Shown: positions 9,713 through 29,143, counted from the stretch's first letter. The stretch: 64,000 bases of DNA from Terriglobia bacterium (GCA_041481635.1 JBGPCF010000001.1:18044-82043), one strand, 5' to 3'. The notes: generated from the letters alone by a model not told the origin. Translations and numbers: made by a program.

Positions 9713-12187
9713 ATGATGAGCCTTGCCTCCGGCACCCGCCTCGGGCCTTACGAAGTCCTCTCGCCGCTCGGCGCCGGTGGGATGGGCCAGGTGTATCGCG
9801 CCCGGGACACGCGGCTGGCGCGCGATGTGGCGCTTAAGTTTTTGCTAGGGGAGGGTGGAGACCTCCCCTACGATGTTCAAGCCTTGGAGCGTTTCAAGCG
9901 GGAGGCGCGCGCCGCCGCCGCGCTGAATCATCCGAACATCTGCACCATTTACGAAATCGGTGATCACAATGGCCGTCCATTCATCGCCATGGAACTCATG
10001 GAGGGCCAGACGCTCAAACAGGTGATTGGCAGGGGGGCGCTTCGCGCCCCCGCAGGAAGCCAAAACCCTCCCCTATCCGTCGACGGGCTGCTCGATTTGG
10101 CCGTTCAAATTGCCGATGCCCTGGACGCCGCGCACCAGAAGGGAATCGTTCATCGCGATATCAAGCCGGCCAACATTTTCGTCACTGCGCGCGGGCATGC
10201 GAAGATTCTCGATTTTGGTTTGGCGAAATTGACCGGGCCGCCGGGGTCCGCGACAGTCGGCGACGGGGACACCGCCGCTACTGCACCCATCGACGAGGCG
10301 CATCTGACAAGGCCCGGCGTGGCGATGGGTACGATCGCTTACATGTCACCTGAGCAGGCACAGGGCGAAGCGCTTGACGCCCGCTCGGATCTCTTCAGTT
10401 TCGGGTGCGTGCTCTACGAGATGGCGACGGGCCGCCAGGCGTTCGCGGGTGGGACGACGGCAACGGTTCTCGCGCAGATTCTCAGGGACCCGCCGCCACC
10501 ATCGAGGCAGTTGAACCCGGGGATACCGGCCAAGCTCGATGAGATCATCCTGAAGGCCCTCGAGAAGGATCGGAATCTACGTTACCAGACGGCGTCCGAC
10601 CTGAGGGCCGATCTCTCCCGACTGTGCCGTGACACGAGATCGGCAAGTGCGCCAAGTGCCCAAGCGCCCACGAAGCGGCCTGCACGAGCCGGCAGGGGAA
10701 GGCGATGGGCGGCCGTGGCAGCTTCGGCCTTCCTAAGCCTCGTCCTCATCGCTTTTGGGCTGAACCTCGGCGGCCTCCGGGAGCGGTTACGAACCGCGCC
10801 CCAACCCGCGACAATCCGCTCCCTGGCGGTCCTGCCGCTTCAAAACCTTTCCGGTGATCCACAACAGGAGTACTTTGCCGACGGCATGACCGAAGAGTTG
10901 ATCACGGATCTCGCGAAGATCAGTGCCCTGCGGGTGATCTCGCGCACGTCTGTGATGCAATATAAGGGGTCCAAGAAGTCGGCGCCCGAAGTTGCTCGGG
11001 AGCTGAATGTGGACGCGCTGGTGGAGGGTTCAGTCGAGCGTGCGGAAAATCGGGTGCGGATCAATGCGCAGTTGATCGACGCCATGAGCGACCGGCATCT
11101 GTGGGCAGATAGCTACGAGCGCGAACTGAAGGACGTCCTGGCATTACAGAGCAGCGTGGCGCGAGCGATTGCCGGAGAGATTCGGATCAAGGTCACGCCT
11201 GCTGAACGGAGGCTTCTGGAGGCGGTTCCCGCTGTCAACGCCGAAGCCCACGACGCCTGGGCAAGAGGAAATTATCACTTTAACAAAGCCACCGAGGAAG
11301 ATCTGAAAAAAGCTATCGAGTACTTCAACCAAGCGCTCGAAAAGGAGCCCGGTTACGCGCGGGCTTATGTTGGCCTGGGTGCATCCTATGCAGCGTTGTG
11401 TCCGTCCTACCGTTCACCACACCAAGTCATTCCCCAGGCTCGCGTGGCGGCGATGAAGGCTCTGGAATTGGACGATAGCCTGGCCGAAGCGCACGCCCTG
11501 CTGGGTGGGATTCAGCTCGTGTACGACTGGGATTGGTCCAGCGCAGAGAAAGAGTTTAGGCGGGCTATCGAGCTGGATGCAAGCTCGGCGAGTGCCCATG
11601 AAGGTTACGCCACCTATTACAGTGCGCTGGGAAAAAGTCGGGATGCCGTTGGGGAGATGAAACGGGCGCAGGAACTGGATCCGCTGTCAATGGGGGCCAT
11701 CATGGACCGCGCCTGGACCTTATACATTGCGCAGGCATACGACGAGGCGACGGAACAATGTAAACGAGACTTGGATACTAGCCCCTCCTATGGCTTTGCT
11801 CACAGCGTCCTGGGCATGATTGCGCTGGAGCACGGTCAACGAGAATTGGCTCTATCGGAAACACGGAAAGGGGTCGAGGTGGACCCAAGCCCGTTCAACC
11901 TTGAAATGCTTGGGACAGCCGAGGCTGTGCTGGGGATGCGAGCCGAGGCCCTCGGCGTGGTGGAAACACTCAAGAAGCGGTCCGCCAAGGAGTACATCTG
12001 CATCTACGAGTTGGGAGCGATATATGCCTGCCTGGGAGAGAGGGACCTGGCATTTCAGTCGCTGAATCGCGCTTGTGATGATCACGACGTTTGCATGATG
12101 TGGCTTCAAGTTGACCCGCGATTGAAATCTCTTCATTCCGACCCTCGCTTTCGTGACTTGCTGCGCCGCATCAGCCTAACGCCCTAA
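9713..12187 (+). CDS. Ser/Thr protein kinase with TM segment, TolB_N-like module and C-terminal TPR repeats
   Basis: Hanks motifs [35 protein letters not shown]. Hydrophobic segment [21 protein letters not shown]-like repeats to the C-terminus. Confidence 0.9.
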
Positions 12188-12252: not shown

Positions 12253-14958
12253 ATGACGCATTCGGCAGGCACCAAGCTCGGGCCGTATGAAATTCTCGCG
12301 CCGTTAGGCGCGGGCGGAATGGGTGAGGTGTATCGCGCGCGCGACACGAAGCTGGGGCGCGAGGTGGCCCTGAAAGTCCTGCCCGCCGCAATGGCGAATG
12401 ATGCCGAACTCATGGCGCGATTCCATCGGGAGGCCCGCGCTGCCTCATCCTTGAACCATCCCAACATCTGCACAATCTACGAATTTGATGAGCACGAGGG
12501 CCGGCCATTCATAGTGATGGAGATGCTGGAAGGACAGACGCTGAAGGACCGTGTTGCTCGGGGCACAGGAGCGGTTCGAGAATTAGGCCTCCGAATCGAC
12601 ATTCTGCTGGACCTTGCTATCCAAATTGCCGAAGCGCTGGACGCCGCACATCAGAAAGGGATCGTCCACCGCGACATCAAGCCGGCAAACATCTTTGTAA
12701 CCAGCCGCGGCCAAGCGAAGATTTTGGATTTCGGATTGGCGAAATTGGGTGTTGGGGCACCCCGTGGCGTGCCCCAACATGACGGCCCCACAGCGGCCAT
12801 GGAAGATGACCCCCTCACCTCTCCAGGCGTCGCGATGGGCACCGTGGCTTACATGTCGCCCGAGCAGGCACGAGGCGAAGAACTCGACGCGCGCACAGAC
12901 CTCTTTAGTTTCGGGGCGGTGCTCTATGAGATGGCTACGGGCAAGCGGGCCTTTTCCGGAACTACTTCAGCCGTAGTTTTCAACGCGATTCTCAGTGGAG
13001 CGCCTGACCCGCCGGTTAGCTTGAATCCGCAGTTGCCGGCCAAGCTTGGAGAAATCATCAACCGCCTGCTTGAGAAAGATTGCGACCTGCGCTACCAAAG
13101 TGCAGCGGACTTGCGCAGCGACCTCAAGCGCCTCAAACGCGACATGGATTCCGGGCGCGCCCCTGCTACATCAGGAATAACCGCCGGGAGTGGAATCGCT
13201 CCAGCGACGGCCCCCGAATTGGTGGGCGTCGCGCGCCGGGTCAAGCGATGGACTTTGGTAGGAACGATTTCCATAGTCACAGTCGCAGCGGCGGTCGTCC
13301 TGTATCTCATGGCGCGCCCGCTTCCCCCACCCCGGGTGCTGGGCTTCACACAAATCACCACCGATGGAATCACCAAAGGTTTTCTGAAAACCGATGGCGA
13401 AAGAATTTACTTCGATGAGGAAATGGCAGGCCACCCCACATTGCATCAGATCTCAGTCGTCGGGGGAGAGGCCGCAATTATTCCTACTCCATTCAAGGAT
13501 GCCTGGTTATGGGGAATCTCTCCCGATCACTCAAAGCTGCTGGTGCTGGAAGGTGATGAAGGGGGTGATGAGGGTCCGGTTTGGGAAGTTCCTTTGCCGG
13601 CTGGAACTCCGCGCCGAATCGGCGGCCTGCTCGCCCATGCCGCAGCCTGGTCTCCTGATGGAAGCCAACTCGCATACGCGAATGGGCGCTCTCTTTTCGT
13701 TATCCCCAGCCGAGGCGGTGAACCTCGAAAAATCGTTGACTTGCCAGGATTGGCTCACCCTCTTCGCTGGTCGCCTGACTCGACGACATTACGTTTTGGC
13801 CTCGAGGGTAATGGCCCTCAACCCGGCCCCCCCACTGTCTGGGAAGTTAAAATCGGCGGAACTGGGCTTCGCAGCGTGCTCCCAGGCTGGAATAACTTTC
13901 CGGGCTGGAACTATGGGGAGTGGACCCTTGACGGGAAATACTATGTTTTTGTGTCCGTCGGAAAGGAACGAAAAGGAATTTGGGCGCTCCGCGAACAACA
14001 CGGAATCTTTCAAAGGGCAAACCAGGAACCGTTTGAGCTAAGCAAAGGCCCCATCGATTTTACGGAAGCGGTTCCCAGCCCTGATGGCAAAAAGCTATAT
14101 GCGCTCGAGGAACAGGACCGGGGCGAATTAGTAAAATACGACTCCAACGCGCGCGAATTCGTGCCCTACCTTTCGGGAATCTCGGTTGTGTTCACCCAAG
14201 TCTCTAAAGATGGTCAGTGGTTAATCTACGTTGAGTATCCGCAAGGGACGCTGTGGCGAAGCAAGCCGGATGGTAGCGAGCGCCTTCAACTGACATTCCC
14301 ACCCATGAATGTCCTGGCTCCTTGCTGGTCAGCCGACGGAAAAACTATTGCTTTCGAGGGACAACAACAGGGCAAGCCCTCCAAGATTTACCTGGTTTCC
14401 TCGGAGGGCGGCAGTCCGCGCCAACTTTTCCCGGATGGACAAGGTGAGGGACGCCCGAGTTGCTCTCCACAAGGAAACTCGCTGGTGTATGCAAGCTATC
14501 CGGCTTCCCGCGCGGGTGACCTGAGCGCTTTGACAACGCATATATTCAACCTGGAGACCAAACAGATTTCCAACCTGGAAGGGTCAGAGGGCATGGGAGG
14601 CCCTCGCTGGTCGCCCGACGCCCGCTACCTGATCGCCATGCAGGACCCGCGCAGGATGATGCTCTTTGATTTCAAAACTCGAAAATGGAAGAAATTGGCC
14701 GATTCCGATGCGGATTTCCCCGAGTGGTCGCACGACGGAAAGTACATCTACTTTATCGGCCGTACAGGTAAGGCTGCGGCTGTGGTCCGGGTGCGCACCG
14801 TGGACGGCAAAATCGAACGGGTGATCGATCTCAAGGATGTCCACCAGGAGTGGGGTAATTTCGGACTCTGGTTCGGCCTCACTCCGGAGGACGCCCCCTT
14901 GATTTTACGCAGCAGAGGGTCCATCGATATTTACGCACTTGATGTGGACCTGCCGTGA
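12253..14958 (+). CDS. Ser/Thr protein kinase with TM segment and TolB-like beta-propeller domain
   Basis: Same kinase motifs ([25 protein letters not shown]). TM segment. Repeated WSPDG/SPDG motifs typical of TolB/PD40 propellers. Confidence 0.9.
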
Positions 14959-15028: not shown

Positions 15029-17674
15029 ATGCTAAACCCTGGAACTAAACTCGGACCTAACGAGATCATCGGAGCTCTGGGCGCGGGGGGAATGGGCGAG
15101 GTCTATCGCGCCCGCGACTCGCGCCTTGACCGCACTGTGGCCATCAAGGTCCTGCCTTCGCATCTTTCAGCCGATGCGGAGCGGCGCCAGAGATTGGAGC
15201 GCGAAGCGCGCGCCGTCTCGAGCCTGAATCACCCCCATATCTGCACCCTTTATGACATCGGTCAGTACGACGGGACGGACTACCTGGTGCTTGAATATTT
15301 GGAAGGCGAAACATTGGCCGACCGCCTCGGACGCGGGCCACTGCCCACCGACCAACTCCTGCGAATCGCGATTGAAATTACCGACGCACTCGAAAAAGCG
15401 CACCACCAGGGCGTAATTCATCGCGATCTGAAGCCCGGCAACATTATGCTGACGAAAGCGGGATCAAAACTCCTGGACTTCGGTCTGGCGAAGCCGGCGC
15501 TGCGCCAGGAGTCGACGCTGCAATCCTCGTTGCCGACCGCCGCCAAGCCCCTTACTGCGGAAGGCGCGCTTGTCGGGACTTTCCACTATATGGCCCCGGA
15601 ACAATTCGAAGGCAAAGACGCCGATGCGCGATCCGACCTGTTTGCCCTCGGCTCCGTGCTTTATGAGATGGCGACAGGCAAGCGGGCGTTCGAGGGAAAG
15701 ACAACAGCCAGTGTGATTGCTGCCGTTCTGGAGCGCCAACCCGCGCCCATCACGTCCGTACAGCCCATGACGCCGCCCGCGCTTGAGCGCGTTGTCATGA
15801 CTTGCCTGGAAAAAGATCCCGAAGAACGCTATCAGTCCGCCCACGATTTGAAGTTGCAGTTGCAGTGGATTGCCGAGGCAGGCTCGCAGGCGGGCGTGCC
15901 CGCTCCGGTTGTGGCGCGACGAAAGAATCGCGAGCGAGTCACCTGGGCGATCATTGGAGTGCTGGCGGTTCTTTCAGTACTGCTCGCTGTTGGGTTCATC
16001 CTCCGCGCGCCCAAGGCTCAACCTTTGATCCGTGCCTCCATCAGCCTTCCTCCCCAGGCAATGACGCCGCCGCTGGGCTTTTTCTCCATATCACCCGACG
16101 GGCGCCGTCTGGTGTTTGTTGCCGCCGCAGCCGGAGGACAGCCTCAGCTCTGGGTGCGTCCTCTCGATTCACTCGCCGCTCAACCCCTCGCTGGAACGGA
16201 GCAAGCGATGTATCCCTTCTGGTCGCCGGACAGCCATTACGTAGGATTTTTCGCCGAAGGAAAGCTGAAGAAAATTGACCCCTCGGGCGGCCCCGCCCAG
16301 TCCCTCTGTAATGCTCCCGATGGCCGCGGCGGCGCCTGGGGCGGTGATGACGTGATCGCCTTTGCCCCCGGTGTATTCTCAGGGATCTTCCGGGTTCCGG
16401 CCATTGGCGGAACTCCGGTGGAGGTAACCTCTCCGGCAAATCCGGGAGATTCGTACCGCTTCCCAAGTTTCCTGCCAGACGGACGACATGTTTTGTTTCT
16501 ATCTCAGACCGGCTCAGGTAAAAAGGACCTTCTTCAAGTAGTGTCGCTGGAGTCCAAGGAGGTTAAGACCATTGCGGAGATCAGCAGTAACGCGGTTTAC
16601 GATTCTTCCGGCTACCTGCTCTATCAACGCGAGGGGAATCTGGTGGCGCAACGTTTCGATGCGGGGAAATTCGTTCTGAGTGGCGATGCGTTTCCGGTTA
16701 TCGAACATGTCCCGACCGATGCGGACCGCGGAAACGTGTTGTTCTCAGTCTCTTCGCAAGGCATCCTGGTTTATCCTGGCGGTGAAAACTCGAGCAAGGC
16801 TCAACTGACCTGGTTTGACCGCGACGGTAAGCAGCTCGGAACCTTGGGTGAGCCAGAGGACCTCGGGGGCCCAGCTCTTTCGCCCGACGGAAAGAAAGTG
16901 GTCGCATCGATCTCCGGGGCAAACGGAAAATTCAGCCTTTGGATGTTCGATGTGACGCGCGGGATTTCCAGCCGCTTTACCTTTACGGATTCTTCGGATT
17001 TTTTTTCTGTGTGGTCGCCCGACGGGAAGCAAGTGGCTTATTCAAGCAACCGGGCAGGCCGGCTGGAGCTTTACGTCAAGCCCGCGAGCGGTGTGGAAAG
17101 CGAGCAGTTGCTTGTAACGGGCGAGGGCGAGAGTATGCCCATGGACTGGTCGCGCGATGGCCGCTACCTGGCCTACCAGACCCAGAGCCGGACTACGAAG
17201 AAGTTTGACCTTTGGATTCTGCCCATAACCGGAGACCGAAAGCCCTTTCCATTTATTGGCACAGACGCCAGTGAAGAGGCGGGAACATTTTCCCCGGATG
17301 GCCGGTGGTTTGCGTATATGTCCGACGAGTCCGGGCGATATGAAATCTACGTTGTCCCCTTCCCGGGCCATGGAGGCAAGTGGCAGGTCTCGAGTTCAGG
17401 CGGGGGATTTCCGTCCTGGGTGGCGAACGGAACCGAGCTCGATTACTTTACAAACGACCGAAAGTGGATGGCCGTGGAAGTGAATGGGAAAGGAAACGAT
17501 TTTTCCATCGGGACAAGCAAAACACTCTTTGGCGGAAAACCGATCCCCGTATTTCCTCAGCGTGGTGCGTTTGTGACCCGCGACGGAAAAAAGCTGCTGA
17601 CGCCGGTGCAGGGGGACACTGGCTCCGTCCCCTTTACCCTGGTCACCAACTGGGGCGCAGCAATCAAGAAATAG
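15029..17674 (+). CDS. Ser/Thr protein kinase with TM segment and TolB-like beta-propeller domain
   Basis: [33 protein letters not shown] segment WAIIGVLAVLSVLLAVGF. Repeated (W)SPDG propeller motifs. Confidence 0.9.
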   Translation: MLNPGTKLGPNEIIGALGAGGMGEVYRARDSRLDRTVAIKVLPSHLSADAERRQRLEREARAVSSLNHPHICTLYDIGQYDGTDYLVLEYLEGETLADRLGRGPLPTDQLLRIAIEITDALEKAHHQGVIHRDLKPGNIMLTKAGSKLLDFGLAKPALRQESTLQSSLPTAAKPLTAEGALVGTFHYMAPEQFEGKDADARSDLFALGSVLYEMATGKRAFEGKTTASVIAAVLERQPAPITSVQPMTPPALERVVMTCLEKDPEERYQSAHDLKLQLQWIAEAGSQAGVPAPVVARRKNRERVTWAIIGVLAVLSVLLAVGFILRAPKAQPLIRASISLPPQAMTPPLGFFSISPDGRRLVFVAAAAGGQPQLWVRPLDSLAAQPLAGTEQAMYPFWSPDSHYVGFFAEGKLKKIDPSGGPAQSLCNAPDGRGGAWGGDDVIAFAPGVFSGIFRVPAIGGTPVEVTSPANPGDSYRFPSFLPDGRHVLFLSQTGSGKKDLLQVVSLESKEVKTIAEISSNAVYDSSGYLLYQREGNLVAQRFDAGKFVLSGDAFPVIEHVPTDADRGNVLFSVSSQGILVYPGGENSSKAQLTWFDRDGKQLGTLGEPEDLGGPALSPDGKKVVASISGANGKFSLWMFDVTRGISSRFTFTDSSDFFSVWSPDGKQVAYSSNRAGRLELYVKPASGVESEQLLVTGEGESMPMDWSRDGRYLAYQTQSRTTKKFDLWILPITGDRKPFPFIGTDASEEAGTFSPDGRWFAYMSDESGRYEIYVVPFPGHGGKWQVSSSGGGFPSWVANGTELDYFTNDRKWMAVEVNGKGNDFSIGTSKTLFGGKPIPVFPQRGAFVTRDGKKLLTPVQGDTGSVPFTLVTNWGAAIKK

Positions 17675-17690
17675 AGCCGGCAAAACAACC

Positions 17691-17746
17691 TGATGAACGA
17701 AAACGGATTCGTGACGCCGAGAAGGCTCAGCCGTCATCGTTCATCA
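17691..17746. terminator. candidate bidirectional terminator hairpin between the convergent kinase and peroxiredoxin genes
   Basis: TGATGAACGAAAACGG (17691-17706) pairs imperfectly with CCGTCATCGTTCATCA (17731-17746): 10 bp plus 4 bp with an internal mismatch. A T-rich run follows on the + strand. Confidence 0.4.
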
Positions 17747-17762
17747 TTTATCATTTCTTCAG

Positions 17763-18305
17763 CTACTTGGTGCCGCTCTTCTTGTGCTCCATCACATCGC
17801 AAGCCGCCCCGGCGCCGCTGGGGTCAATGGCTTCCTTGTCGACGTCGATGTGCTGGATGATTCCCTGCTTGTCGATCACAAAAGTGGTGCGATTGGCAAA
17901 ACCGTGTTCCTCGTTGTAAATCCCGTAATCCTTGGAAACGGTTCGCATGAAGTCGCTCAAAAGCGGAAACTTCACTCCAATTTGCTCGGCGAATGCTTTG
18001 TTGGCCGCCGGACTGTCTACGCTCACTCCCAGGACTTGCGTGCCGTTCGCTTCAAATTTGGCGATATCAGCCTGATACGCCTTGAGCTCTTTCGTTCAAC
18101 CCCCGGTGAAAGCGAGCACGTAAAAAGCCAGCACCAGATTCTTCTTACCCAGGAAATCGCTCAGCTTCACCGGCTTCCAGTCGGTGCCAAGCAGAGTGAA
18201 GTCCGGAGCCTTGTCCCCCACTTTGAGTGTTGCCGCTTGAGCCGCCAATGGACTGGCAAGGGCCAAAACCACTAGGACGGCAGCGGCGCGCAGTTTGTGC
18301 TTCAC
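17763..18305 (-). CDS. exported BCP/PrxQ-like peroxiredoxin with in-frame TGA (18096-18098) at the peroxidatic position; candidate selenoprotein
   Basis: Track fragments 18096..18365 and 17763..18026 share a frame and are joined by one TGA. Read-through gives ...[14 protein letters not shown]...RTTFVID.... GTG start at 18303-18305 lies 7 nt after AGGAGG. Signal peptide [24 protein letters not shown]. Confidence 0.75.
18060..18081 (-). promoter_or_regulatory. candidate bacterial SECIS hairpin of peroxiredoxin A
   Basis: mRNA 5'-GGCGUAUCAGGCUGAUAUCGCC-3' begins 14 nt after the UGA. It forms 4+4 bp with one bulged U and an AGGCU loop. The sequence is identical to the element in the paralog. Confidence 0.55.
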
Positions 18306-18383
18306 AGAATAGCCTCCTCTTAGAACATGCTTCATTGCGTTATAGCAGGCCGGATTATATCCCAAAAAACGGGAGACAGAGAG

Positions 18384-18399
18384 TTTTACAAGTGTAAAA
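18384..18399. promoter_or_regulatory. 16-bp palindrome in the peroxiredoxin A upstream region (candidate operator)
   Basis: TTTTACA-AG-TGTAAAA is a perfect 7-bp inverted repeat. On the minus strand it lies between a TTGACA (18404-18409) and a perfect TATAAT (18354-18359). Confidence 0.3.
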
Positions 18400-18428
18400 G
18401 TTTTGTCAATTTGGAGAGCCCCACAAAC

Positions 18429-18962
<534 letters not shown>

Positions 18963-19219
18963 ATATAAATCCTGCCCGATCAGATCCAGCCCGTACCCTC
19001 GTTCGACGAAAGCCGATTATAGCCTGCCCTCCTTCTTTCAGTGCCAGGAATCTCATTTAATCCAATGGGGCGGGTTATAAGCCGCGCTCCGAGGATTTCC
19101 CGCTGAAAATGGTCCCCGTCTGTTTAGGAATGGCGATGATTTTGAAAAATGATGTTGATATCCAACCTAAGACCAGAAGTTTTTACATTAAGATATTGAA
19201 AATAAAAGGTAAAAAATAC

Positions 19220-19248
19220 TTGACAGTATTACACTCATATTTTATCAT
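19220..19248 (+). promoter_or_regulatory. sigma70-type promoter of hsp20
   Basis: TTGACA (19220-19225), 17-nt spacer, TATCAT (19243-19248), in a locally AT-rich stretch about 50 nt upstream of ATG 19299. Confidence 0.5.
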
Positions 19249-19269
19249 GTACATGTGCTAATGCACATG
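19246..19269 (+). promoter_or_regulatory. overlapping palindromes at the -10/+1 region of hsp20 (candidate operator or 5' RNA hairpin)
   Basis: CATGTACATG (19246-19255) and CATGTGC-TAAT-GCACATG (19252-19269) are both perfect inverted repeats. Confidence 0.3.
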
Positions 19270-19298
19270 AAAGCTCAATTCCAAGGAGGATCAAAGCA

Positions 19299-19751
19299 AT
19301 GGCGATAGTACGATGGGAACCTTTTCGGGATGTTTTTTCGACGCAGGACCGGTTCAACCGGCTGTTTAACCAGACCCTTACCCAGATGTTTGGGGAGGAT
19401 GAGGGAAAGCTGGGCACGTGGTCTCCAGCTGTGGACGTCTTCGAGACCGACCAGAATCTTGTGGTGAAGGCCGAACTTCCGGGCGTCGACCCCAAGGACG
19501 TGGAAATTCGGGTGGAGAACAACACCCTGTTCCTGAAGGGTCAGCGGAAGTTCGAGAACGAAGTTAAGGAAGAGAACTATCACCGGATCGAGCGGTCCTA
19601 CGGTTCATTCACGCGAACGTTTGAGTTGCCCGGCTCGATCGACGCTGAGAAAGTATCGGCTGAGTACAAGAGCGGGGTGTTGACCCTGACGCTGCCCAAG
19701 CGCGAAGAGGCCAAGCCAAAGACGATCAAGATCAACGTCAGCAACAATTAA
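19299..19751 (+). CDS. small heat-shock protein, Hsp20/alpha-crystallin family
   Basis: Alpha-crystallin domain (WSPAVDVFETDQNLVVKAELPGV...GVLTLTLPK). Strong SD AAGGAGGA. Confidence 0.9.
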   Translation: MAIVRWEPFRDVFSTQDRFNRLFNQTLTQMFGEDEGKLGTWSPAVDVFETDQNLVVKAELPGVDPKDVEIRVENNTLFLKGQRKFENEVKEENYHRIERSYGSFTRTFELPGSIDAEKVSAEYKSGVLTLTLPKREEAKPKTIKINVSNN

Positions 19752-19799
19752 GGCAAGCTTGTGAGGTTGGGCCCTGAAATGCCCCCTCAACATTAGCGA

Positions 19800-19862
19800 A
19801 ACCGCGCCGGTGGTTCCCTGAAGCGATCCAGCCAGGGCGACAATTGGCGCGGTTCATTTTTT
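19800..19862 (+). terminator. candidate rho-independent terminator after hsp20
   Basis: AACCGCGCC (19800-19808) pairs with GGCGCGGTT (19846-19854), with an inner CCCTG/CAGGG stem. CATTTTTT follows. The loop is unusually long. Confidence 0.4.
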
Positions 19863-19892
19863 GAACTAGAATTCGAGAGTTGAGAGTCAACT

Positions 19893-22532
19893 ATGGCGAC
19901 ACGATTTGACAAATTTACGGTTAAGGCTCAGGAAGCCCTGCAGGCCACGCAGGATGTAGCCGGGCGATATGGCAACCAGCAAATGGAGCCCGTTCATCTC
20001 CTGCGGGCGCTTGTCGAGCAACCGGAGGGAATTGTCCCGGCGATTCTGGCCCGGCTGGGCGTCACCCCGGCGATCGTCCTTCAAGAATCTGAGAAAGTCA
20101 TCGATGCTCTGCCCAAAGTGGGTGGCTCGACGGATCACTTCCTCTCCCCTGCCCTGAAAGAGATTTTTGACCAGGCGTCCAAGGAAATCGAACAGTTCAA
20201 GGACGAATTCGTTTCCACCGAACACTTGCTGCTGGCTCTGGCGCGGAAGCCCCGTGAAGCAGCGGGGAAAATTCTGGCGAAGTTGGGGGTAACGCACGAC
20301 GCCATTTTGAGAGCGCTGAAAGACGTGCGGGGCACGCAGCGCGTGACCGATCAAAATCCCGAAGCGAAATTCCAAGCACTGGAAAAATACGCGCGCGACC
20401 TCACCGAACTGGCCCGCCGCGGCAAGCTCGACCCAGTGATTGGCCGTGACGACGAAGTGCGACGGGTGATCCAGGTACTTTCCCGGCGCACCAAGAACAA
20501 TCCGGTCCTGATCGGCGAGCCGGGCGTGGGCAAGACGGCCATCGTGGAGGGCATCGCGCAGCGCATTGTAGCGGGCGACGTTCCGGAGTCGCTGAGATCC
20601 AAGCGCATCGTCGCGCTCGATTTGGGCGCGATGGTGGCGGGCTCAAAATATCGCGGCGAGTTCGAAGACCGTCTGAAAGCGGTACTGAAAGAAATTGAAG
20701 AGTCGAGCGGACAGGTCATTCTTTTTATTGACGAGCTCCACACGCTGGTGGGTGCGGGGGCCGCGGAAGGCGGCATTGACGCCTCCAACATGCTTAAGCC
20801 GGCGCTGGCGCGCGGCGAGTTGCGCTGCATCGGCGCCACCACGCTTAACGAGTACAAGAAATACATTGAAAAGGACGCGGCCCTCGAGCGGCGTTTCCAG
20901 CCCGTCCTAGTCGGCCAGCCGACGGTGGAAGACACCATCGCGATCTTGCGCGGGCTTAAAGAGAAGTACGAAGTCCACCACGGCGTGCGCATCAAGGACT
21001 CGGCGATCGTCGCCGCCGCCGTGCTTTCCAACCGCTACATCGCCGACCGATTCTTGCCCGACAAGGCCATCGATTTGATTGACGAAGCCGCCTCCAGCCT
21101 GCGCATTGAAATCGACTCGATGCCCGCCGAGGTCGACCAGATTCAGCGGCGCATCACTCCGCTTGAGATCGAGCGGCAGGCGCTTCGCAAAGAGGACGAC
21201 CCCGCCTCGGCCGAGCGCCTGAAGAAGCTGGAGCGCGAGCTCGCGGAGCTGACTGAGAAATCGAGCCAGCTGAAGTTGCGCTGGAATGCAGAAAAGGAAA
21301 TCATTGCCAGCATCCGCCAGCTCAAAAGCGAAATCGAGCAAGCCAAAATCGAGGAGCAGCGCGTGACGCGCGAGGGCGACCTGAACAAGGCCGCGGAAAT
21401 CCGCTATAGCAAAATGGTCGAACTGGAAAAGAATCTGGCTGCCGCCAACGCCAAGCTCGAACAGGCCCAGCAAGCGGGCCGCATGCTCAAGGAAGAAGTG
21501 GATGAAGAGGATGTGGCGCGCGTGGTTTCCAAGTGGACCGGCATTCCGGTATCCAAAATGCTCGAAGGCGAGATGTCCAAGCTGGTGAAGATGGAAGACC
21601 GCCTGCGCTTGCGCGTGGTGGGGCAGGACGAAGCGTTGCGCCTGGTGGCCAACGCGGTACGCCGCAGCCGCGCGGGACTTTCCGACCCCAACCGCCCCAT
21701 CGGTTCCTTCCTGTTTCTGGGGCCGACAGGCGTGGGCAAAACGGAGTTGGCACGCGCCCTCTCTGAATTCCTATTTGACGACGAGCACGCCCTGCTCCGA
21801 ATCGACATGTCCGAGTACATGGAGAAGCACTCCGTAGCTCGCCTGATCGGCGCGCCGCCCGGCTATGTCGGATACGACGAGGGCGGACAGTTGACCGAAC
21901 TAGTACGGCGGCGCCCCTACTCAGTAATCCTGTTTGACGAAATCGAGAAAGCGCATCCCGACGTCTTTAACATCCTGCTGCAAATCCTCGACGACGGCCG
22001 GCTGACCGACGGCAAAGGTCGCACCGTGGATTTCAAAAATGCCGTGGTCATCATGACTTCGAATATTGCCAGCCACGAGATTCGCGAGAGCATGAGCGGT
22101 GGCGCCGATCTTAGGGTCGGCACGGTCTCTGAAGAATTACGGCGAACAATTCATTCGACGCTGCTTCAACATTTCCGGCCGGAATTCATCAACCGAATTG
22201 ACGAGATTGTGATCTTCAACGCCCTGGGCAAGGAGCAAATAACCAAGATCGTTGAGCTCCAGCTCAACCATCTCAAGCGCCTGCTGGCGGAGCGCAAGAT
22301 CCAGATTGACCTGACGGACAAGGCACGCGAGTTGCTGTTTCGCGAGGGGTACGATCCGCAATTTGGCGCACGCCCTCTGAAGCGAGCCATCCAGCGGCTG
22401 ATCCAGGACCCGCTGGCGCTGAAGCTCCTGGATGGCGAAGTTCACGCAGGCGACACGCTAGCCGTCGACAGCGACTTGAAAAAGGGAGAAATGAAATTCG
22501 AGCGCGTGGCTGCCAAGGCGGCCAACAGGTGA
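19893..22532 (+). CDS. clpB: ATP-dependent chaperone/disaggregase ClpB
   Basis: Clp N-domain, two AAA+ modules ([16 protein letters not shown]) and a long coiled-coil middle domain. 879 aa. Confidence 0.97.
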
Positions 22533-22634
22533 AGATCCATGTGGCGCTGGCACCACGGGGTGACTGCTTGCTGCTTAACTTTGGGCGGTCCAACTGCATC
22601 TAATGGATGTGAAGGGAATTTGGGAGATTAATTT

Positions 22635-23486
22635 ATGTGGAACAATTTGAAGACAACGGTATTGCTGGCCGGCATGACCGGGCTGTTTTTGGCTATGGGT
22701 GAGCTATGGCGCGGACAGAGCGGCATGATTTTTGCCCTCGTACTAGCCGGAGTTATGAACCTGGGCGCGTATTTCTTTTCCGATAAGATCGCCCTGGCAT
22801 CGAGTGGCGCCCAACCCATTTCGCGCGAGGATGGCCCGCGCATTTACCAGATCGTGGAGCGCCTGGCCGGCAAGGCCAACATTCCCGTGCCCAAGATTTA
22901 CATGATTCCCACCGACTCGCCCAACGCGTTTGCGACCGGCCGCAACCCCAGCCACGCCTCGGTGGCGGTGACCCGCGGGATTCTCGAGATTTGCACGGAC
23001 GAAGAAATTGAAGGCGTGTTGGCCCATGAGTTGGGTCACGTAAAGAACCGCGACATTCTCACTAGCGCCGTAGTGGCGACCCTCGCCGGCGCGATCACCT
23101 TGATCGCCCGAATGATTTACTGGGGTGAACTCTTTACTGGTTACGGAAGCAGTGACAGCCGGCGGGGCGGAATTTTCTCGGCCCTGGCTATGATTATTGT
23201 GGCGCCCCTGGCCGCCACGCTCATCCAGTTGGCGATTTCCCGCTCGCGGGAATACGAAGCCGACCATACGGGTGCGGAAATTACCGGCAACCCTCGCGGC
23301 CTTGCTTCCGCGCTGCAGAAGATCGACCAGTGGTCCAAGCGGGTGCCCATGCAGGTTTCACCTTCCATGGCGCACATGTATATAGCTCAGCCGCTGACCT
23401 CCGGCGAAATTTTCAGCAGCCTCTTTTCCACTCACCCGCCGATCCCCAAGAGGATTGAGCGGTTGATTGGAAGGGACTTTGTCTAA
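22635..23486 (+). CDS. htpX: membrane zinc metalloprotease HtpX (M48 family)
   Basis: N-terminal TM helices, HELGHVKNRD motif, downstream EYEAD. Confidence 0.9.
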   Translation: MWNNLKTTVLLAGMTGLFLAMGELWRGQSGMIFALVLAGVMNLGAYFFSDKIALASSGAQPISREDGPRIYQIVERLAGKANIPVPKIYMIPTDSPNAFATGRNPSHASVAVTRGILEICTDEEIEGVLAHELGHVKNRDILTSAVVATLAGAITLIARMIYWGELFTGYGSSDSRRGGIFSALAMIIVAPLAATLIQLAISRSREYEADHTGAEITGNPRGLASALQKIDQWSKRVPMQVSPSMAHMYIAQPLTSGEIFSSLFSTHPPIPKRIERLIGRDFV

Positions 23487-23715
23487 GACTTCGCCCCATC
23501 GTCCGTAATCGGAGAAATGAAAGCCGGGCGCGAAAATCACGCAATCACCTGCGGCGATGTGTGCTCTCTCTGGTTTCCACCCGCATGTCTCACTAAGGCT
23601 CGGACCCAGTTGACACTCGCTTTGTCATAACGCAGAATCGTTTCTCCCACACTGCATCGGGCTTGGAACTCCCGGATGAAGTGTCGGAAAATCTTATCCT
23701 GCATGGGGGTTAGAA

Positions 23716-24195
23716 ATGGCAGCTAAAGTAAAGCCGATTCCCGACGGATTCCATTCCATCACTCCAGGCCTGGTCTGCAAGGACGCGGCGCGCGCGATCG
23801 AGTTTTATAAGAAGGCCTTCGGGGCCAAGGAGCGGATGCGCATGCCCACTCCCGACGGCAAGATTGGCCACGCGGAATTGCAGATCGGCGACTCCATCTT
23901 TTTCTTGGGAGATGAATTTCCCCAGATGGGCACGGTCGCGCCCACAGGGCCACAAAGCGTCTCCCTCTTCGTTTACGTTGAGGATGTCGACGCTGTTTTC
24001 AAGCGCGCCGTAGCAGCCGGCGCGCGAGTGGATATGCCAGTCACCGACCAATTCTGGGGCGATCGCTATGGAAAACTTACCGACCCGTTCGGCCATCACT
24101 GGGGAATCGCGACGCACACGGAAGATGTATCCCCGGAGGAGATGGATCGTCGCGCCAAGGAATTCGCCAAGAAAATGGCCGTCGCGAAAGCCTGA
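23716..24195 (+). CDS. VOC/glyoxalase-family protein (PhnB-like)
   Basis: Size and sequence (AIEFYKKAFGA...HAELQIGDS...FWGDRYGKLTDPFGHHWGI) typical of the PhnB-like VOC family. Confidence 0.75.
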   Translation: MAAKVKPIPDGFHSITPGLVCKDAARAIEFYKKAFGAKERMRMPTPDGKIGHAELQIGDSIFFLGDEFPQMGTVAPTGPQSVSLFVYVEDVDAVFKRAVAAGARVDMPVTDQFWGDRYGKLTDPFGHHWGIATHTEDVSPEEMDRRAKEFAKKMAVAKA

Positions 24196-24347
24196 TTGGC
24201 AGTCTTTTTACTGCTCTACGTTTTGTGTGTTGATTGGGGCGCCGGGTGAATTCAATCTCCTCCGCTGCGCCCCATCCCTCCTTGCTTCTCATTCTGCAGA
24301 CGGTGGGTTTCCGTACGCCTTGACTTCGCCTTGTCTGGAATGCCACA

Positions 24348-25274
24348 GTGATTGACGGAAAGGGAACGAGTCCGCGTTCCGCTGGTCTACCGGGCTCGCG
24401 CCTCCCCGCGATCATGGCCGGCATAACCTTTGAAGAGTTCTTCGCGAAGAACCGCCAGCAGGTTGCTGACCTTTATCAATCGTCCGGCGCCGCTCGTTGG
24501 TCTGTCCCTATCGAAGATTTTGCGCAGGCCACGTGGAAGGGCATCGCTTCAGCGGCGCTTGCCGAGCCCGGCGAGATTCCCCGCCTGCTCTCGGCTTTGC
24601 GCTCTGAAGACCTGGCCCTGGCGCTCGGTTGCGTTCGCGGCGATGAACGGGCTTGGGATACTTTTTGTTCGCAATTTCGCTCCTCCCTTTACGAATCCGC
24701 ATATGCCGTAGCGCACGAAGAAACTCAAGCGCGCGACCTCGCCGACTCGCTCTTGGCCGAACTCTTTGGACTGGATGCCACCGTCCCCGGCAGGAACTCC
24801 CGCTTCGCTTATTTTCACGGCCGGAGCAGTTTGAAAACCTGGCTGCGCGCGGTGCTCTACCAGAGGTTTGTAGACGAATACCGCCGCCACAGCCGACTGG
24901 TTCCTCTGGCTGAAGATCCACCCGAAGTTGCAGCCACCGGAACTTCGGTTGAGGAGCAGGACGATCGCCGGTACGCGGAGTGCCTTGGTGATGCAGTGGA
25001 GGCCGCACTCGGCGAGCTCCCTCCGTCCGAGAAGCTCTTGCTCAGCTATTATTACGTTCAGGAATTAACTCTCAAACAGATTGGGCGGCTCTCAGGGGAA
25101 CACGAGGCGACGATTTCACGGCACCTCGAGTCCCTCAGGAAAAAGCTGCGCAAGCGCATTGAAACTTACTTGCGCAGCGTCAGAAAACTCAGTGCATTGG
25201 AGGTCGACCGCTGCCTTGACTTTGGCTCGCGCGGAGTCATCATGAATATGGAGAGGGTTTTGAAGCCAAAATAA
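24348..25274 (+). CDS. ECF-like sigma factor with an N-terminal extension
   Basis: Region 2-like segment (DLADSLLAELFG...LKTWLRAVLYQRFVDEYRR) and region 4 HTH (ELTLKQIGRLSGEHEATISRHLESLRKKLRKR). About 100 aa precede region 2. The start is uncertain (GTG 24348 or ATG 24414). Confidence 0.7.
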   Translation: MIDGKGTSPRSAGLPGSRLPAIMAGITFEEFFAKNRQQVADLYQSSGAARWSVPIEDFAQATWKGIASAALAEPGEIPRLLSALRSEDLALALGCVRGDERAWDTFCSQFRSSLYESAYAVAHEETQARDLADSLLAELFGLDATVPGRNSRFAYFHGRSSLKTWLRAVLYQRFVDEYRRHSRLVPLAEDPPEVAATGTSVEEQDDRRYAECLGDAVEAALGELPPSEKLLLSYYYVQELTLKQIGRLSGEHEATISRHLESLRKKLRKRIETYLRSVRKLSALEVDRCLDFGSRGVIMNMERVLKPK

Positions 25275-25401
25275 TATTTGCAATGGTGGAGGAATCGCAC
25301 GTTCTAATCATTGGGAAGGTTTAAGAAGGCTGATGGGCAGGAGGGCCGATCGCTGACTGGCAGCCGCTCGAGTTGTCCAAGGGCGGCGAAATGAGCGCTT
25401 T

Positions 25402-26886
25402 ATGAAGGACGACTCGGTTCGAGACAAAGCGATGGAAAAACTGGTGGAGAGGGGGCTGCGCGCCGGCCTCAAACCGGCAAGCTCGAGCTGCCTGGATGCT
25501 GAGATCATGGCGGCGTACGTTGAGCACGCCCTGTCTCCACGGGAACGCGCCAACTGTGAAGGACACCTTGTATCCTGCGCACGCTGCCAGGAGCACGTTG
25601 CCGCGCTGGTTCGATTGAGTGAATCCGATGAACCCGCACAAGTCCGGGTTGCCGCGGCGCCGGCGCGTGCCCTGCGACCAAGCTGGTTCCGCATGGCCTT
25701 TGCCGGCCCGGTTTTGGCCGCTGTGCTGGTTGGCGGGATTTATTTCATGGGCCCGTTCAGAGACGTCATTAAAGAGCCACCAGAAACCAGTCACCCAGTT
25801 CAGCACCCGTCAACTCCCCCACCGCCTCCACCACAAAATTATGATCAAGATAAAGGTGAGCCTAACAGCGCAGCCAAGCGGACCCAAGTCGCATCCGGGG
25901 ACAAGAAAGCTTCAGATGATAATTCGCAGCCGTTAAAGCTGGTTGAGAAGAAGGCCACCACTCAACCTCCAACCACGCCGACACGAAGCGAGGGTGGAAC
26001 GCCAGCATCGATCACCACGACCGTCGGGCGGAATACGCAACCTGCACCGCCGTCGCCTCAGCAGACAAGTTCTTCGCTCACGGATGCCCAGAGTATGCCG
26101 AGAAACCTTCCTAAGCCGGAGCCCACGACGACCGAGCGTGGCTCACCCGTTCGGTCCCAGGAAATCGCAACGCCGTCGGTTCGGGCCAAGATTGCGCAAG
26201 CTGGCCCGGGAGAAAACGGAGAGGCAGGCGGCGGCAAAGGCATGGAGACATCAATCGGCGGTACGGGGGGAAGGGCTGCGGGAGGACTCGCCAATAACCT
26301 ATACAGAAAAAATTCAAAGGACGAAGACAAAGTCAGACCCGCACAAAGGCAAGGCGATGCAACGGGAACAATCGCCAAAGAAGAGGCTGATGTTGCAAAA
26401 GCCAAAACGCAGAACGAAGCCATAGCCAAGACGGATTCCAGGACCACGACCCCGCCTTCCACGGAACCCCGTGACCGAGAGCAAAGAAAACAAGAAGTTA
26501 CTCCTTCGGTTGAAATCAGTGCCGCAAGCCACTCTGGAAAAACGGAATTGGTGGTTTCATCACCAATTTGGAGAGTCGGCCGGCACGGATTGATCGCGCA
26601 AAGGGATCAAAACGGTAATTGGAAGAAGCGCAAAAGCGGCGTTAAGGCCGATCTCAATGAAATTTCGTTTGCCAGCCCTGAAGTCGGCTGGGCGGTGGGC
26701 CAGGCCGGGTCCATCCTGCGATCGACGGACGGAGGAAAGGTATGGATCCAAGTGCCCAGCCCCAGCAATGAAGATATTGTCCACGTCACTGCCATAAGCG
26801 AATGGGCAGCCAGCATCGTCACTCGTAGCGGCGACACCCTGAACACAGCCGACGGAGGCAAGACGTGGAGCCCTAAATCACAATAA
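25402..26886 (+). CDS. anti-sigma factor (zf-HC2) with TM segment, Pro/Thr-rich linker and BNR/Ycf48-like C-terminal domain
   Basis: HLVSCARCQEHV (H-x3-C-x2-C). TM segment AGPVLAAVLVGGIYF. Low-complexity linker. Two S/T-x-D-G-G-K-x-W repeats (STDGGKVW, TADGGKTW). Confidence 0.7.
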   Translation: MKDDSVRDKAMEKLVERGLRAGLKPASSSCLDAEIMAAYVEHALSPRERANCEGHLVSCARCQEHVAALVRLSESDEPAQVRVAAAPARALRPSWFRMAFAGPVLAAVLVGGIYFMGPFRDVIKEPPETSHPVQHPSTPPPPPPQNYDQDKGEPNSAAKRTQVASGDKKASDDNSQPLKLVEKKATTQPPTTPTRSEGGTPASITTTVGRNTQPAPPSPQQTSSSLTDAQSMPRNLPKPEPTTTERGSPVRSQEIATPSVRAKIAQAGPGENGEAGGGKGMETSIGGTGGRAAGGLANNLYRKNSKDEDKVRPAQRQGDATGTIAKEEADVAKAKTQNEAIAKTDSRTTTPPSTEPRDREQRKQEVTPSVEISAASHSGKTELVVSSPIWRVGRHGLIAQRDQNGNWKKRKSGVKADLNEISFASPEVGWAVGQAGSILRSTDGGKVWIQVPSPSNEDIVHVTAISEWAASIVTRSGDTLNTADGGKTWSPKSQ

Positions 26887-26988
26887 ATAAACTCCGATTC
26901 ACATATTCAACCGTTGGACCAGATTGACGCATTCTCTACCTCCCAGCATTTCCGATGTTAAAATGGAAAAGGATTTGATCCTCTCGTC

Positions 26989-28404
26989 ATGGCTCGAACG
27001 CGCGACCTTTACTCTCGGTGGGCGCTTGAAATGCGGCGCAGCGGGTTTTTCAAGGCCGGCGACCGCATCGGAGTGGCCGTTTCTGGCGGGCCTGACTCGA
27101 TCCTCCTGCTTGCCTTCATGAAACAGCTTGCCCGTGAAATGGGGCTCACGCCAGTCGCCGTCCATTTCAATCACCGCCTGCGTGGGGCGGAGGCAGATGC
27201 CGATGAGCGTTTCGTTTGTGAACAAGCTCGCCGGCTCGGGATCGATTGGATGCGAGGCGAAGGTGATGTGTCCAAGGTGGCGCGCGAAAGGCATAGAAAT
27301 ATCGAAGCGACGGCTCGTAACCTCCGCTACCAATTTTTCTTTTCTCTGGTCAACCAGGGACGCGTGGACAAAATCGTCACCGCGCACACGGCAAACGACC
27401 AGGCCGAGACCGTTCTTTTGAAACTCCTGCGTGGCGCAGGCACTCGCGGGCTGGGAGGGATATTCCCTGTGCTCGAAACCAAAGTCGTTCGTCCGTTTCT
27501 GAGCGTCACCCGGGCCGAGGTCGAACAGGAAATGAAGAAGCTGAAACTGGAATCGCGCCAGGATTCCTCCAATGAAAACCTGAATCTTCGCCGCAATAAG
27601 ATCCGAAAGGAACTTCTGCCGCTCCTTCAAAGAGAGTTTAATCCGGAAGTGATCAACCTGCTCAAAGACCTTGCCGAGCGAGCCAGAGACGACGAAGATT
27701 GTTTGGAAAGCCTGGCCCACGAGCGGGCTCGGCCGTGGCGGGTTCAGGAAGGGTCGGAGCAAAAGATTCCCGCCCGCTCCCTGAGCGAATTTCCCGTGGC
27801 CATTGGCCGGAGAGTATTGCGACAAATGATCCAGGCAGTCAGGGGAAATCTTCGCGGAGTAACTTATCGGCAAATCGAAGCGCTCCGCCGGTTCGCCGTC
27901 GAGGCCCAGAGTGGCCGCCGGCTGATGTTGCCTGGAGCCGTGGAGGCTCGTAGAGAGTTTGACTGGTTGGTCCTTGCGCCTTCGCTCGCACCCCAAAGGA
28001 GTCTGGAATATTGCCACCCTGTCGTTATTCCTGGGGGGGTGTCCGTCCCCCAAATTGGCCTCACCTTCCAGTTTAAAATTATTGGCCCGGAGGACGGCCC
28101 AAGGGCGTATAATGCCTCAGGGGCGGTGGGCCTAGACCCACTGAAATTATCCGGTCCACTGGTCTTGAGGAATTGGCGCGCGGGCGACAAGTTTTGGGCT
28201 TCGGGGAGTCGAGAGGCCCGGAATCTGAAGGGTTTTTTCGCACGGCGTAAAATTCCGCAAGCTGAGAGAAGGGTGTGGCCCGTTCTCGCCGCGGGAGACG
28301 AGATTGTCTGGGCACGGGATTTTCCTCCCGCGAACCATAAGATCGCTTCTCCCAACGCAAAGTGGCTACTGGTTAGAGTGGACAAAACTGAAACTAACGG
28401 TTAG
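26989..28404 (+). CDS. tilS: tRNA(Ile)-lysidine synthase
   Basis: PP-loop VAVSGGPDS. Conserved position upstream of hpt-ftsH. Confidence 0.85.
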   Translation: MARTRDLYSRWALEMRRSGFFKAGDRIGVAVSGGPDSILLLAFMKQLAREMGLTPVAVHFNHRLRGAEADADERFVCEQARRLGIDWMRGEGDVSKVARERHRNIEATARNLRYQFFFSLVNQGRVDKIVTAHTANDQAETVLLKLLRGAGTRGLGGIFPVLETKVVRPFLSVTRAEVEQEMKKLKLESRQDSSNENLNLRRNKIRKELLPLLQREFNPEVINLLKDLAERARDDEDCLESLAHERARPWRVQEGSEQKIPARSLSEFPVAIGRRVLRQMIQAVRGNLRGVTYRQIEALRRFAVEAQSGRRLMLPGAVEARREFDWLVLAPSLAPQRSLEYCHPVVIPGGVSVPQIGLTFQFKIIGPEDGPRAYNASGAVGLDPLKLSGPLVLRNWRAGDKFWASGSREARNLKGFFARRKIPQAERRVWPVLAAGDEIVWARDFPPANHKIASPNAKWLLVRVDKTETNG

Positions 28405-28422
28405 GGCCCGAGTAAAGCCAAA

Positions 28423-29031
28423 ATGAAAAAACGTTCTAAGAAACCAGCGAAGAAATCTAGAGCTTCCAAATCGCCTAAGAAGCCGGCGTCAACAAAGGCT
28501 CAAGGGGTTCTTCCCGGCGATCATCTCCGTGTAATTTTCACCCAAAAGCAAATCGAGAAGCGTGTGCACGACTTGGCCGCACAGGTCAACCGTGACTTCC
28601 AAGGCAAGACGCTGCACGTGATCGGGATACTGGAGAACTGCTTCCTGTTCATGGCGGACCTGGTGCGCGAAATTAAGATTCCGGTTATCTGTCATTTCCT
28701 CAAGGCGGAAATCAAGGATGATTCCTCGGGCAAAGTTGCCGTGCGAGAGATTGTGTATACCCCTCGAGTCGATGTGGCCGGAAAGGACGTCCTCCTGGTG
28801 GACGGCATTTTGCAGTCCGGAGTCACCATCGACCATCTAGTTCGTGTAATGCAGGTGCAGCAGGTAAACTCCATCAACGTCGCCGAATTAATTGAGAAGA
28901 CGGAAGAACTCAAGGTGGACCTGGCCACCCGATACGTCGGCTTCAAAACCCAGGAAAAATTCCTGGTTGGCTACGGACTGGGATTCCAAGAAAAGTACCG
29001 GAACCTTCCCTACGTGGCCAGCCTAAGTTAA
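28423..29031 (+). CDS. hpt: hypoxanthine phosphoribosyltransferase with Lys-rich N-terminal extension
   Basis: PRT fold and PRPP loop (KDVLLVDGILQSGVT). tilS-hpt-ftsH synteny. The first ~30 aa are KKxxK-rich. Confidence 0.8.
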   Translation: MKKRSKKPAKKSRASKSPKKPASTKAQGVLPGDHLRVIFTQKQIEKRVHDLAAQVNRDFQGKTLHVIGILENCFLFMADLVREIKIPVICHFLKAEIKDDSSGKVAVREIVYTPRVDVAGKDVLLVDGILQSGVTIDHLVRVMQVQQVNSINVAELIEKTEELKVDLATRYVGFKTQEKFLVGYGLGFQEKYRNLPYVASLS

Positions 29032-29143
29032 TTTTGGTGAGAGTCGGGACGAAATAGCGCGTTGAGGCATCTAATATACTGAGGAAGAAAAGGACAAAAG
29101 GTAAAGCCGGGGTCTTTGTGGAAAGGCCAGAGGAGAAAACGAC

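Follow-up and report, generated by a model that had tools for sequence, protein, structure and literature searches.

Peroxiredoxins that carry selenocysteine (Sec, or U) in a T-x-x-U motif are an established family of bacterial selenoproteins (PMC13188914; PMC1794560), and 12 peroxiredoxin selenoproteins appear in Table 1 of PMC1794560. Equally established is the bacterial selenocysteine insertion sequence (bSECIS), a stem-loop of the mRNA that lies inside the open reading frame (ORF), right after the UGA codon to be read as Sec. Here we describe two tandem peroxiredoxin genes, called prx1 and prx2, in a 64,000-nt stretch of DNA from a Terriglobia bacterium (GCA_041481635.1 JBGPCF010000001.1:18044-82043; the whole stretch is referred to as the window). 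Both genes have the same 22-nt hairpin shortly after an in-frame UGA. Judging from these sequences and those of their relatives, the two hairpins are very probably the in-ORF bSECIS elements of two tandem AhpE/BCP-like peroxiredoxin genes whose products are probably exported. With both Sec-peroxiredoxins and in-ORF bSECIS already established, the prx pair adds a well-documented case; the mechanism is not new.

The SECIS of the E. coli genes fdhF and fdnG, a SelB-binding hairpin that has been characterised by experiment, shares several features with the prx hairpins. The E. coli elements are located in the coding region at a fixed short distance after the UGA, they place an RNA-level constraint on the coding sequence, they have a GG- or GU-containing apical loop, and one U is bulged out of their upper stem. 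The fdhF element has an 11-nt spacer, a GGUC loop and a bulged U on the 5' strand of the stem. The prx hairpins have a spacer of 14 nt instead of 11 and A-GGC-U in place of GGUC, and they have no sequence similarity to the fdhF element. The bSECISearch consensus (Zhang and Gladyshev 2005), as it is relayed in PMC13188914, describes an in-ORF stem-loop right after a Sec-UGA, and the window hairpins violate none of its rules; in that form the consensus is generic, and it is silent on the 3'-side bulged U and on the near-invariant sequence of the prx hairpins. The SECIS elements of eukaryotes and archaea do the same job of turning UGA into Sec, but they are found in the 3' untranslated region and have kink-turn/GA-quartet or GAA_A motifs (PMC13188914). 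The prx hairpins lie in the ORF and have none of these motifs.

On the protein side, the comparison is with PrxU, a Sec-containing peroxiredoxin of Eubacterium acidaminophilum reportedly described by Söhling et al. in 2001, and with the family named 'Prx (TxxU)'. Like prx1 and prx2, these proteins have the AhpC/TSA fold and Sec in place of the peroxidatic Cys in T-x-x-U. The prx products are nevertheless from a different peroxiredoxin subfamily, their N-termini carry export or anchor sequences, and their source is Acidobacteriota instead of Clostridia; with 68.6 and 83.2 bits against the PrxU equivalog NF040737, whose cutoff is 270, they are not members of that group. The nearest solved structures are those of Mycobacterium tuberculosis AhpE (Rv2238c) and of BCP-PrxQ (E of about 2e-28), which are of similar size and have the same motif with Cys. 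These proteins use Cys and have neither UGA nor SECIS, whereas prx1 and prx2 have Sec and a conserved C-terminal Cys. No description of this Sec-peroxiredoxin clade turned up among the papers that could be searched, and the 2006 selenoproteome supplement does not contain the peptide AYQADIAKF.

Both genes are on the minus strand, one after the other: first prx2 (18962 down to 18429), then prx1 (18305 down to 17763). One TGA interrupts each ORF, and reading through it gives in both cases a complete AhpC/TSA-family peroxiredoxin (PF00578, E=5.5e-41 for prx1 and 4e-41 for prx2; 140 bits for both proteins, against a cutoff of 26). The PxxxTxxC/U active-site pattern is present in both, as APDF…AFTxGU(T). 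The UGA codons are located at 18096-18098 (FTGG-U-TKE) in prx1 and at 18753-18755 (FTPG-U-TKE) in prx2, at the position of the peroxidatic Cys in the FTxGCT(K/R)E motif of 54 Cys homologues. A UGA at the catalytic Cys, in an ORF that continues as a conserved peroxiredoxin domain, supports Sec recoding. The UGA codon is an ordinary stop in 21 of the 46 long ORFs of the window; this is therefore not a code-4 genome, which argues for recoding at specific sites. When the window was scanned naively for other genes with an in-frame UGA, 149 candidates came up, mostly meaningless, and none like the prx pair was among the matches listed.

Both proteins have a C-terminal Cys (codons 17799-17801 in prx1 and 18456-18458 in prx2, minus strand) that falls in an invariant column, C169, of a 28-sequence alignment (A2) and may be the resolving Cys. 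In the same alignment prx1 and prx2 are 53% identical in amino acids; the nucleotide identity is 66% over the ungapped core. The start of prx1 is probably the GTG at 18305, which is preceded by GAGGAGG at 18313-18319, with an in-frame ATG at 18335 as the alternative; prx2 starts with the ATG at 18962. Judged by eye, the N-terminus of prx1 (18230-18305) has a signal-peptide-like hydrophobic stretch that ends in AQA/A and looks cleavable, and that of prx2 (18890-18962) has one hydrophobic anchor or signal. Because both N-termini are hydrophobic sequences of the export type, the two selenoenzymes would probably be periplasmic or membrane-tethered.

The 22-mer GGCGUAUCAGGCUGAUAUCGCC occupies 18060-18081 in prx1 and 18717-18738 in prx2, on the minus strand, and begins in both genes 14 nt after the UGA. 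There is no third match in the 64 kb; even with two mismatches allowed, GGCGTATCAGGCTGATATCGCC occurs only twice in the window, and 100 shuffles gave no occurrence. The upper hairpin, GGCG-UAUC / AGGCU / GAUA-U-CGCC, has its loop at 18069-18073 and its bulged U at 18064 in prx1, and at 18726-18730 and 18721 in prx2. ViennaRNA folds the 22-mer at -8.5 kcal/mol (z=-2.3; equally good folds in 6 of 200 shuffles) into a stem of two 4-bp segments, its bulged U on the 3' side, and closes a GGC triloop with an additional A-U pair. The sequence-only reading had reported the identical hairpin 14 nt after both UGAs, folded it by eye into 8 bp with one bulged U and an AGGCU loop, and likened its geometry to that of bacterial SECIS with a G in the apical loop. 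Its coordinates and geometry were confirmed, with exactly two copies in the window; its fold agrees with the computed one apart from the added A-U pair, and the hairpin that it expected to be stable is so.

The likeness to bacterial SECIS can be put in terms of the four rules given in PMC13188914. An apical loop of 3-9 nt on an upper stem of 4-16 bp is called for in the legend of Fig. 2 of that paper, and both copies have a loop of 5 nt (3 with the A-U closing pair) on a stem that carries one bulged U and is 8 bp (or 9) long. The loop is to have a G in its first two positions, mostly as N1-G-(G/U)-N-N2 with N1 and N2 able to pair (PMC13188914); the loop here is A-G-G-C-U, with G at position 2 followed by G. 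The distance from UGA to loop is given as 16-37 nt (PMC13188914), and it amounts in both copies to 22 nt when counted to AGGCU and 23 nt when counted to the GGC triloop. The minimum free energy (MFE) is to be -7.5 kcal/mol or lower (PMC13188914); the hairpin alone reaches -8.5 kcal/mol, and the 60-nt windows that follow the UGAs reach -13.0 (prx1) and -14.9 kcal/mol (prx2). In a rough re-implementation of these rules, both window copies passed together with 124 of the 144 UGA homologues introduced below.

The case for the hairpin is built on comparative data and not on thermodynamics. A protein search returned more than 2000 relatives, and the best 120 of them (P0001-P0120) fall into three kinds: full-length proteins with Cys, full-length proteins with Trp, and fragments of 100-109 aa. 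The Trp stands at the Sec position in 36 of the 120, on metagenome contigs of roughly 1-2 kb, and is most simply a gene-caller artefact, the UGA having been called in code 4; the fragments, about a dozen, have a spurious TTG or ATG start right after the UGA. A scan of one genome per species gave, among its best 80 loci, 78 TGA sites in 71 loci against 2 Cys sites. Nearly all of these loci are titled Acidobacteriota, the titles being Terriglobia, Pyrinomonadaceae, Blastocatellia and Chloracidobacterium, with one 'uncultured Clostridia bacterium' and one that reads only 'bacterium'. A metagenome scan seeded with a Cys-only alignment gave 80 loci, all with TGA forms only. The genome and metagenome loci of Acidobacteriota have 152 UGA sites in total, and the comparative set, with the window included, comprises 144 distinct 240-nt segments of the TGA form. 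Exact-protein look-ups added 3 Cys loci, with P0057 absent from the records, and the DNA of the Cys form amounts to five distinct sequences only (loci L012, L068, L081, L082/83 and L084).

The tandem order seen in the window, a prx2-type gene and then a prx1-type gene, each with UGA and hairpin, recurs in the Terriglobia loci L001-L006, L018 and L085-L097. The two types are about 0.6-0.75 kb apart in most of the tandem loci and about 2.3 kb apart in L004. An arrangement kept across so many Terriglobia loci means that the duplication is old. In most Pyrinomonadaceae loci a single copy is seen within the 3-kb flanks.

Across the window and all loci, every one of the 176 occurrences of the core TAYCAGKMTGRTA lies exactly 21 nt after a TGA, and the identical 22-mer is present in 70 of the 144 distinct UGA-form segments. 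In an alignment of 80 sequences, the stem positions form standard pairs in 95.5% of the cells, compared with 13-70% in slid registers; both sides have changed at 4 of the 8 stem pairs, and the observed covariation score was reached by none of 500 shuffles. Three of the eight pairs are invariant, hence uninformative on covariation. In the 144 segments, pair 21/36, which joins the third codon positions of Ala +6 and of Ile +11, is GC in 91, CG in 19, AU in 9, GU in 6, UG in 1 and unpaired in 18, and a C at column 21 is always matched by a G at column 36. Pair 24/32 is UA in 140 and CG in 3. On a rough neighbour-joining tree of the flanking sequence, the C-G and A-U states each appear in about 5-6 separate groups. 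The loop is AGGCU in 117 segments, AGUCU in 22 and AGGAU in 5, a variation that follows the G(G/U)N consensus and keeps the pairable A and U flanks. Several changes that alter the protein, from Ile to Met or Arg and from A-D-I-A to D-G-T-S (L073, L162), nonetheless preserve or improve the pairing.

In five variants of the hairpin the bulge is lost or shifted: L134 (729-788), L142 (730-789), L073 (3127-3186), L162 (745-804) and L015 (3181-3240). The variants without a bulge are perfect stems of at least 8 bp, brought about by Ile to Arg, ADIA to DGTS and IA to MP. These hairpins are natural structure-preserving mutants and could serve as a guide for mutagenesis.

The same constraint is visible in the choice of codons. 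At conserved residues, codons +6 to +12 have an entropy of 0.35 bits, compared with 1.34 bits at 38 conserved codons outside (Mann-Whitney p=9e-4). Within the hairpin TAT is used in 141 of 144 segments and CAG in all 144, GCT encodes Ala in 117 of 117 cases and GAT encodes Asp in 140 of 140; in the rest of these genes TAT, GCT and GAT make up a minority, with shares of 0.41, 0.17 and 0.42. The two window genes tell a similar story when they are compared with each other. Their longest identical run is a 29-nt block with the hairpin inside. Codons for the same amino acid are identical in 9 of 9 cases within the block and in 25 of 55 outside (Fisher p=0.002); only 39 of 20,000 codon-column shuffles gave a run of at least 29 nt, and the block is flanked by the synonymous differences AAA/AAG, CTC/TTG and TTT/TTC. 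The block and its synonymous flanks had been claimed in the sequence-only reading, and they are as it described them; its suggestion that selection acts on the RNA beyond the peptide is borne out by the 144 UGA homologues, which conserve nucleotides beyond what the peptide needs and in which the stem covaries.

The relatives that have Cys instead of Sec serve as the control. In L081 and L082/83 the peptide K-A-Y-Q-A-D-I is kept, but the codon of Asp +10 is GAC, and that of Ala +9 in L081 is GCG. The codons of L081 and L082 destroy the A23-U33 pair, and the 22-nt MFE is only -2.2 to -3.7 kcal/mol; L012, L084 and L068 have diverged further than these two. The ratio of GAT to GAC at Asp +10 is 140:0 in the UGA forms and 1:3 in the Cys forms (Fisher p=8e-6), so that the nucleotide conservation is lost in the few Cys lineages at hand, as had been proposed for a signal read at the RNA level. 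The protein is also less constrained there: at +8 to +12 its entropy is 0-0.6 bits in the 36 'W' (UGA) forms and 0.9-2.3 bits in 54 Cys forms. L082 is a single T-to-C change away from a hairpin variant that is present in five UGA forms; it has the look of a gene converted recently from Sec to Cys, with a SECIS that is beginning to decay. Taken together, the covariation of the stem, the fixation of the codons and the loss of the stem in the Cys forms lead us to conclude that the structure is maintained by selection on the RNA.

How such an element might work can be sketched along the lines of the E. coli pathway. The ribosome would arrive at the UGA that stands in for the peroxidatic Cys and, given the 14-nt spacer, the hairpin would be positioned just outside the mRNA entry channel when the UGA is in the A site. 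There it would display the apical A-G-G-C-U loop (a conserved G, then G or U) and the bulged U. SelB, in complex with Sec-tRNA(Sec) and GTP, would bind both through its C-terminal domain and, competing with release factor 2, deliver the Sec-tRNA to the UGA. This would yield a full-length selenoenzyme in which Sec is the peroxidatic residue and the invariant C-terminal Cys the candidate resolving residue. Because the element is inside the ORF, about nine codons (K-A-Y-Q-A-D-I-A-K) are frozen at both the nucleotide and the peptide level.

Several observations weigh against this interpretation. The 60-nt windows after the UGAs have unexceptional energies compared with shuffles (z=-0.85 and -1.64), and at two positions of the stem, 21/36 and the outer pair 18/39, about 13-16% of the homologues lack a pair, with A·C in 14 cases, for example. 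A possible extension of the hairpin by a lower helix is weakly supported: in prx1 it would comprise 4 bp, UCAA/UUGA (element 18052-18085, minus strand; -10.3 kcal/mol in a 41-nt window), and in prx2 5 bp, UUGAA/UUCGA (18709-18743, minus strand; as part of the -14.9 kcal/mol fold of the 60-nt window). The pairing of columns 13-17 with 43-47 was tested in the prx2 register, prx1 pairing one nucleotide further 3'; it is only 71.5% paired across the homologues and its register shifts between the two window copies, and the lower helix was rejected. Rfam had no match in the whole window at gathering thresholds, SECIS_1-5 included, and at E up to 10 over 17700-19050 it gave only chance snoRNA-type matches with E>1. 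Compared with fdhF, the prx hairpins have their bulged U on the 3' side and place the loop G about 4 nt further from the UGA, so the contacts with SelB may differ. The contrast between Sec and Cys forms draws on few lineages, with 5 distinct Cys-form DNA sequences. Finally, the 64-kb window and the 3-kb flanks of 60 related loci yielded no selA, selB, selD or tRNA-Sec: when eight mid-sized ORFs of the window were scanned with NCBIfam, TilS, GlmM, dihydroxy-acid dehydratase and others came up without SelA, SelB or SelD, and ARAGORN found no tRNA-Sec in the window and no tRNA at all in the flanks of the 60 loci. Sec decoding does exist in Acidobacteria, since Solibacter usitatus has SelA, SelB and a Sec-containing FdhA (PMC1794560, supplements) and PMC12013277 names Occallatibacter riparius among the bacteria that use Sec.

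The shared sequence could in principle come about without any function of the RNA. One way would be a purely protein-level constraint on the peptide combined with codon bias, in which case the hairpin is accidental. The peptide is indeed highly conserved in the UGA forms, and the three stem pairs that never vary give no information; yet the codons that are fixed are the non-preferred ones of the same genes, the synonymous entropy falls only inside the hairpin, and where the UGA forms do change the amino acid (Ile to Met or Arg, ADIA to DGTS), they do so in precisely the ways that preserve pairing. The Cys homologues speak to the same point from the other side, since those with the identical peptide use GAC and GCG and have a broken stem, and the peptide otherwise varies freely among them. 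We regard this account as highly improbable. The other way would be that the 29-nt identity is a relic of a recent duplication, or of local gene conversion between tandem paralogues. Adjacent paralogous genes in the same orientation are just where one would look for it, but prx1 and prx2 are only 53% (protein) and 66% (nucleotide) identical, the tandem pair is old, with both types adjoining in all the tandem loci given above, and the 22-mer is found in 70 of 144 homologues that include single-copy loci and span Terriglobia, Pyrinomonadaceae and Blastocatellia. A relic of this kind has hardly any chance of being the explanation.

Granted an RNA element, the UGA might still be something other than a Sec codon: the genes could be pseudogenes or split genes, or the UGA could be read through by a near-cognate tRNA (for Trp or Cys), with the hairpin there for read-through, pausing or mRNA stability. 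In other systems, read-through can be stimulated by a hairpin that follows a stop codon; the window shows no Sec machinery; and the public gene calls are either truncated products of 100-109 aa or have W at the UGA position. The calls with W come from metagenome contigs of roughly 1-2 kb and are most simply artefacts of the gene caller, and Trp as the peroxidatic residue would inactivate a peroxiredoxin according to the established chemistry of these enzymes. All 144 distinct sequences have the UGA at the catalytic residue. Pseudogenes are excluded by the clear purifying selection downstream of it, where synonymous change is free, and the loop obeys the G(G/U) rule of SelB-type elements. TxxU Sec-peroxiredoxins are, moreover, an established bacterial family (PMC13188914, PMC1794560). 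All this makes a UGA with another meaning very unlikely, and we keep to the reading of the hairpins as bSECIS elements of two Sec-peroxiredoxin genes.

The neighbourhood of the pair deserves a brief description. Directly upstream of it in the window is a tandem array of three paralogous Ser/Thr protein kinase genes on the plus strand (9713-12187, 12253-14958 and 15029-17674; 824, 901 and 881 aa), with N-terminal kinase domains that are near-identical at the start (…LGPYE…); the C-terminal part of the first has TPR, and those of the other two have PD40/TolB-like beta-propeller repeats. The sole ARAGORN call in the window, an 83-nt tRNA-Gly(ccc) at 14552-14634 on the minus strand, lies antisense in the second kinase ORF, has no tRNA support from Rfam and is probably false. 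On the other side, and divergent from the prx pair, is a stress and proteostasis cluster (19220-31039, plus strand), headed by Hsp20 (19299-19751), which is preceded by an 11/12 sigma-70-like promoter (19220-19248). It continues with ClpB (19893-22532), an M48/HtpX-like protease (22635-23486), a glyoxalase-fold protein (23716-24195), an ECF-type sigma factor (24348-25274), TilS (26989-28404) and FtsH (29144-31039). Sec-peroxiredoxins beside heat-shock genes suggest a common stress island. The spacer between prx2 and prx1 has a 7-2-7 inverted repeat, TTTTACA-CT-TGTAAAA (18386-18401), which overlaps a TTGACA-like hexamer upstream of prx1; as an operator it was dismissed, the pattern being present in 0 of 164 related loci and so either unconserved or due to chance.

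In practical terms, a TGA followed by 14 nt and GGCGTATCAGGCTGATATCGCC makes a simple and highly specific flag for re-annotating selenoproteins across Acidobacteriota. The family also offers a clean natural case of an RNA element that constrains about nine codons, in which the Sec-to-Cys converts show the constraint relaxing; SECIS predictors could be benchmarked on it, and work on the specificity of the acidobacterial SelB could start from it. For the organisms themselves, the findings point to peroxide detoxification with selenium, probably extracytoplasmic, in many soil Acidobacteriota. A further idea, which we offer tentatively and think rather less likely to be right than wrong, is that the hairpin is a nearly invariant, phylum-specific SECIS 'cassette' that has co-evolved with a narrow acidobacterial SelB, in a duplicated, exported AhpE-like peroxiredoxin that is overwhelmingly of the Sec form in soil Acidobacteriota. 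If this is true, the extracytoplasmic peroxide defence of a very abundant soil phylum would depend on selenium, and a peroxiredoxin that is mostly mis-annotated could rank among the commonest selenoproteins in soil.

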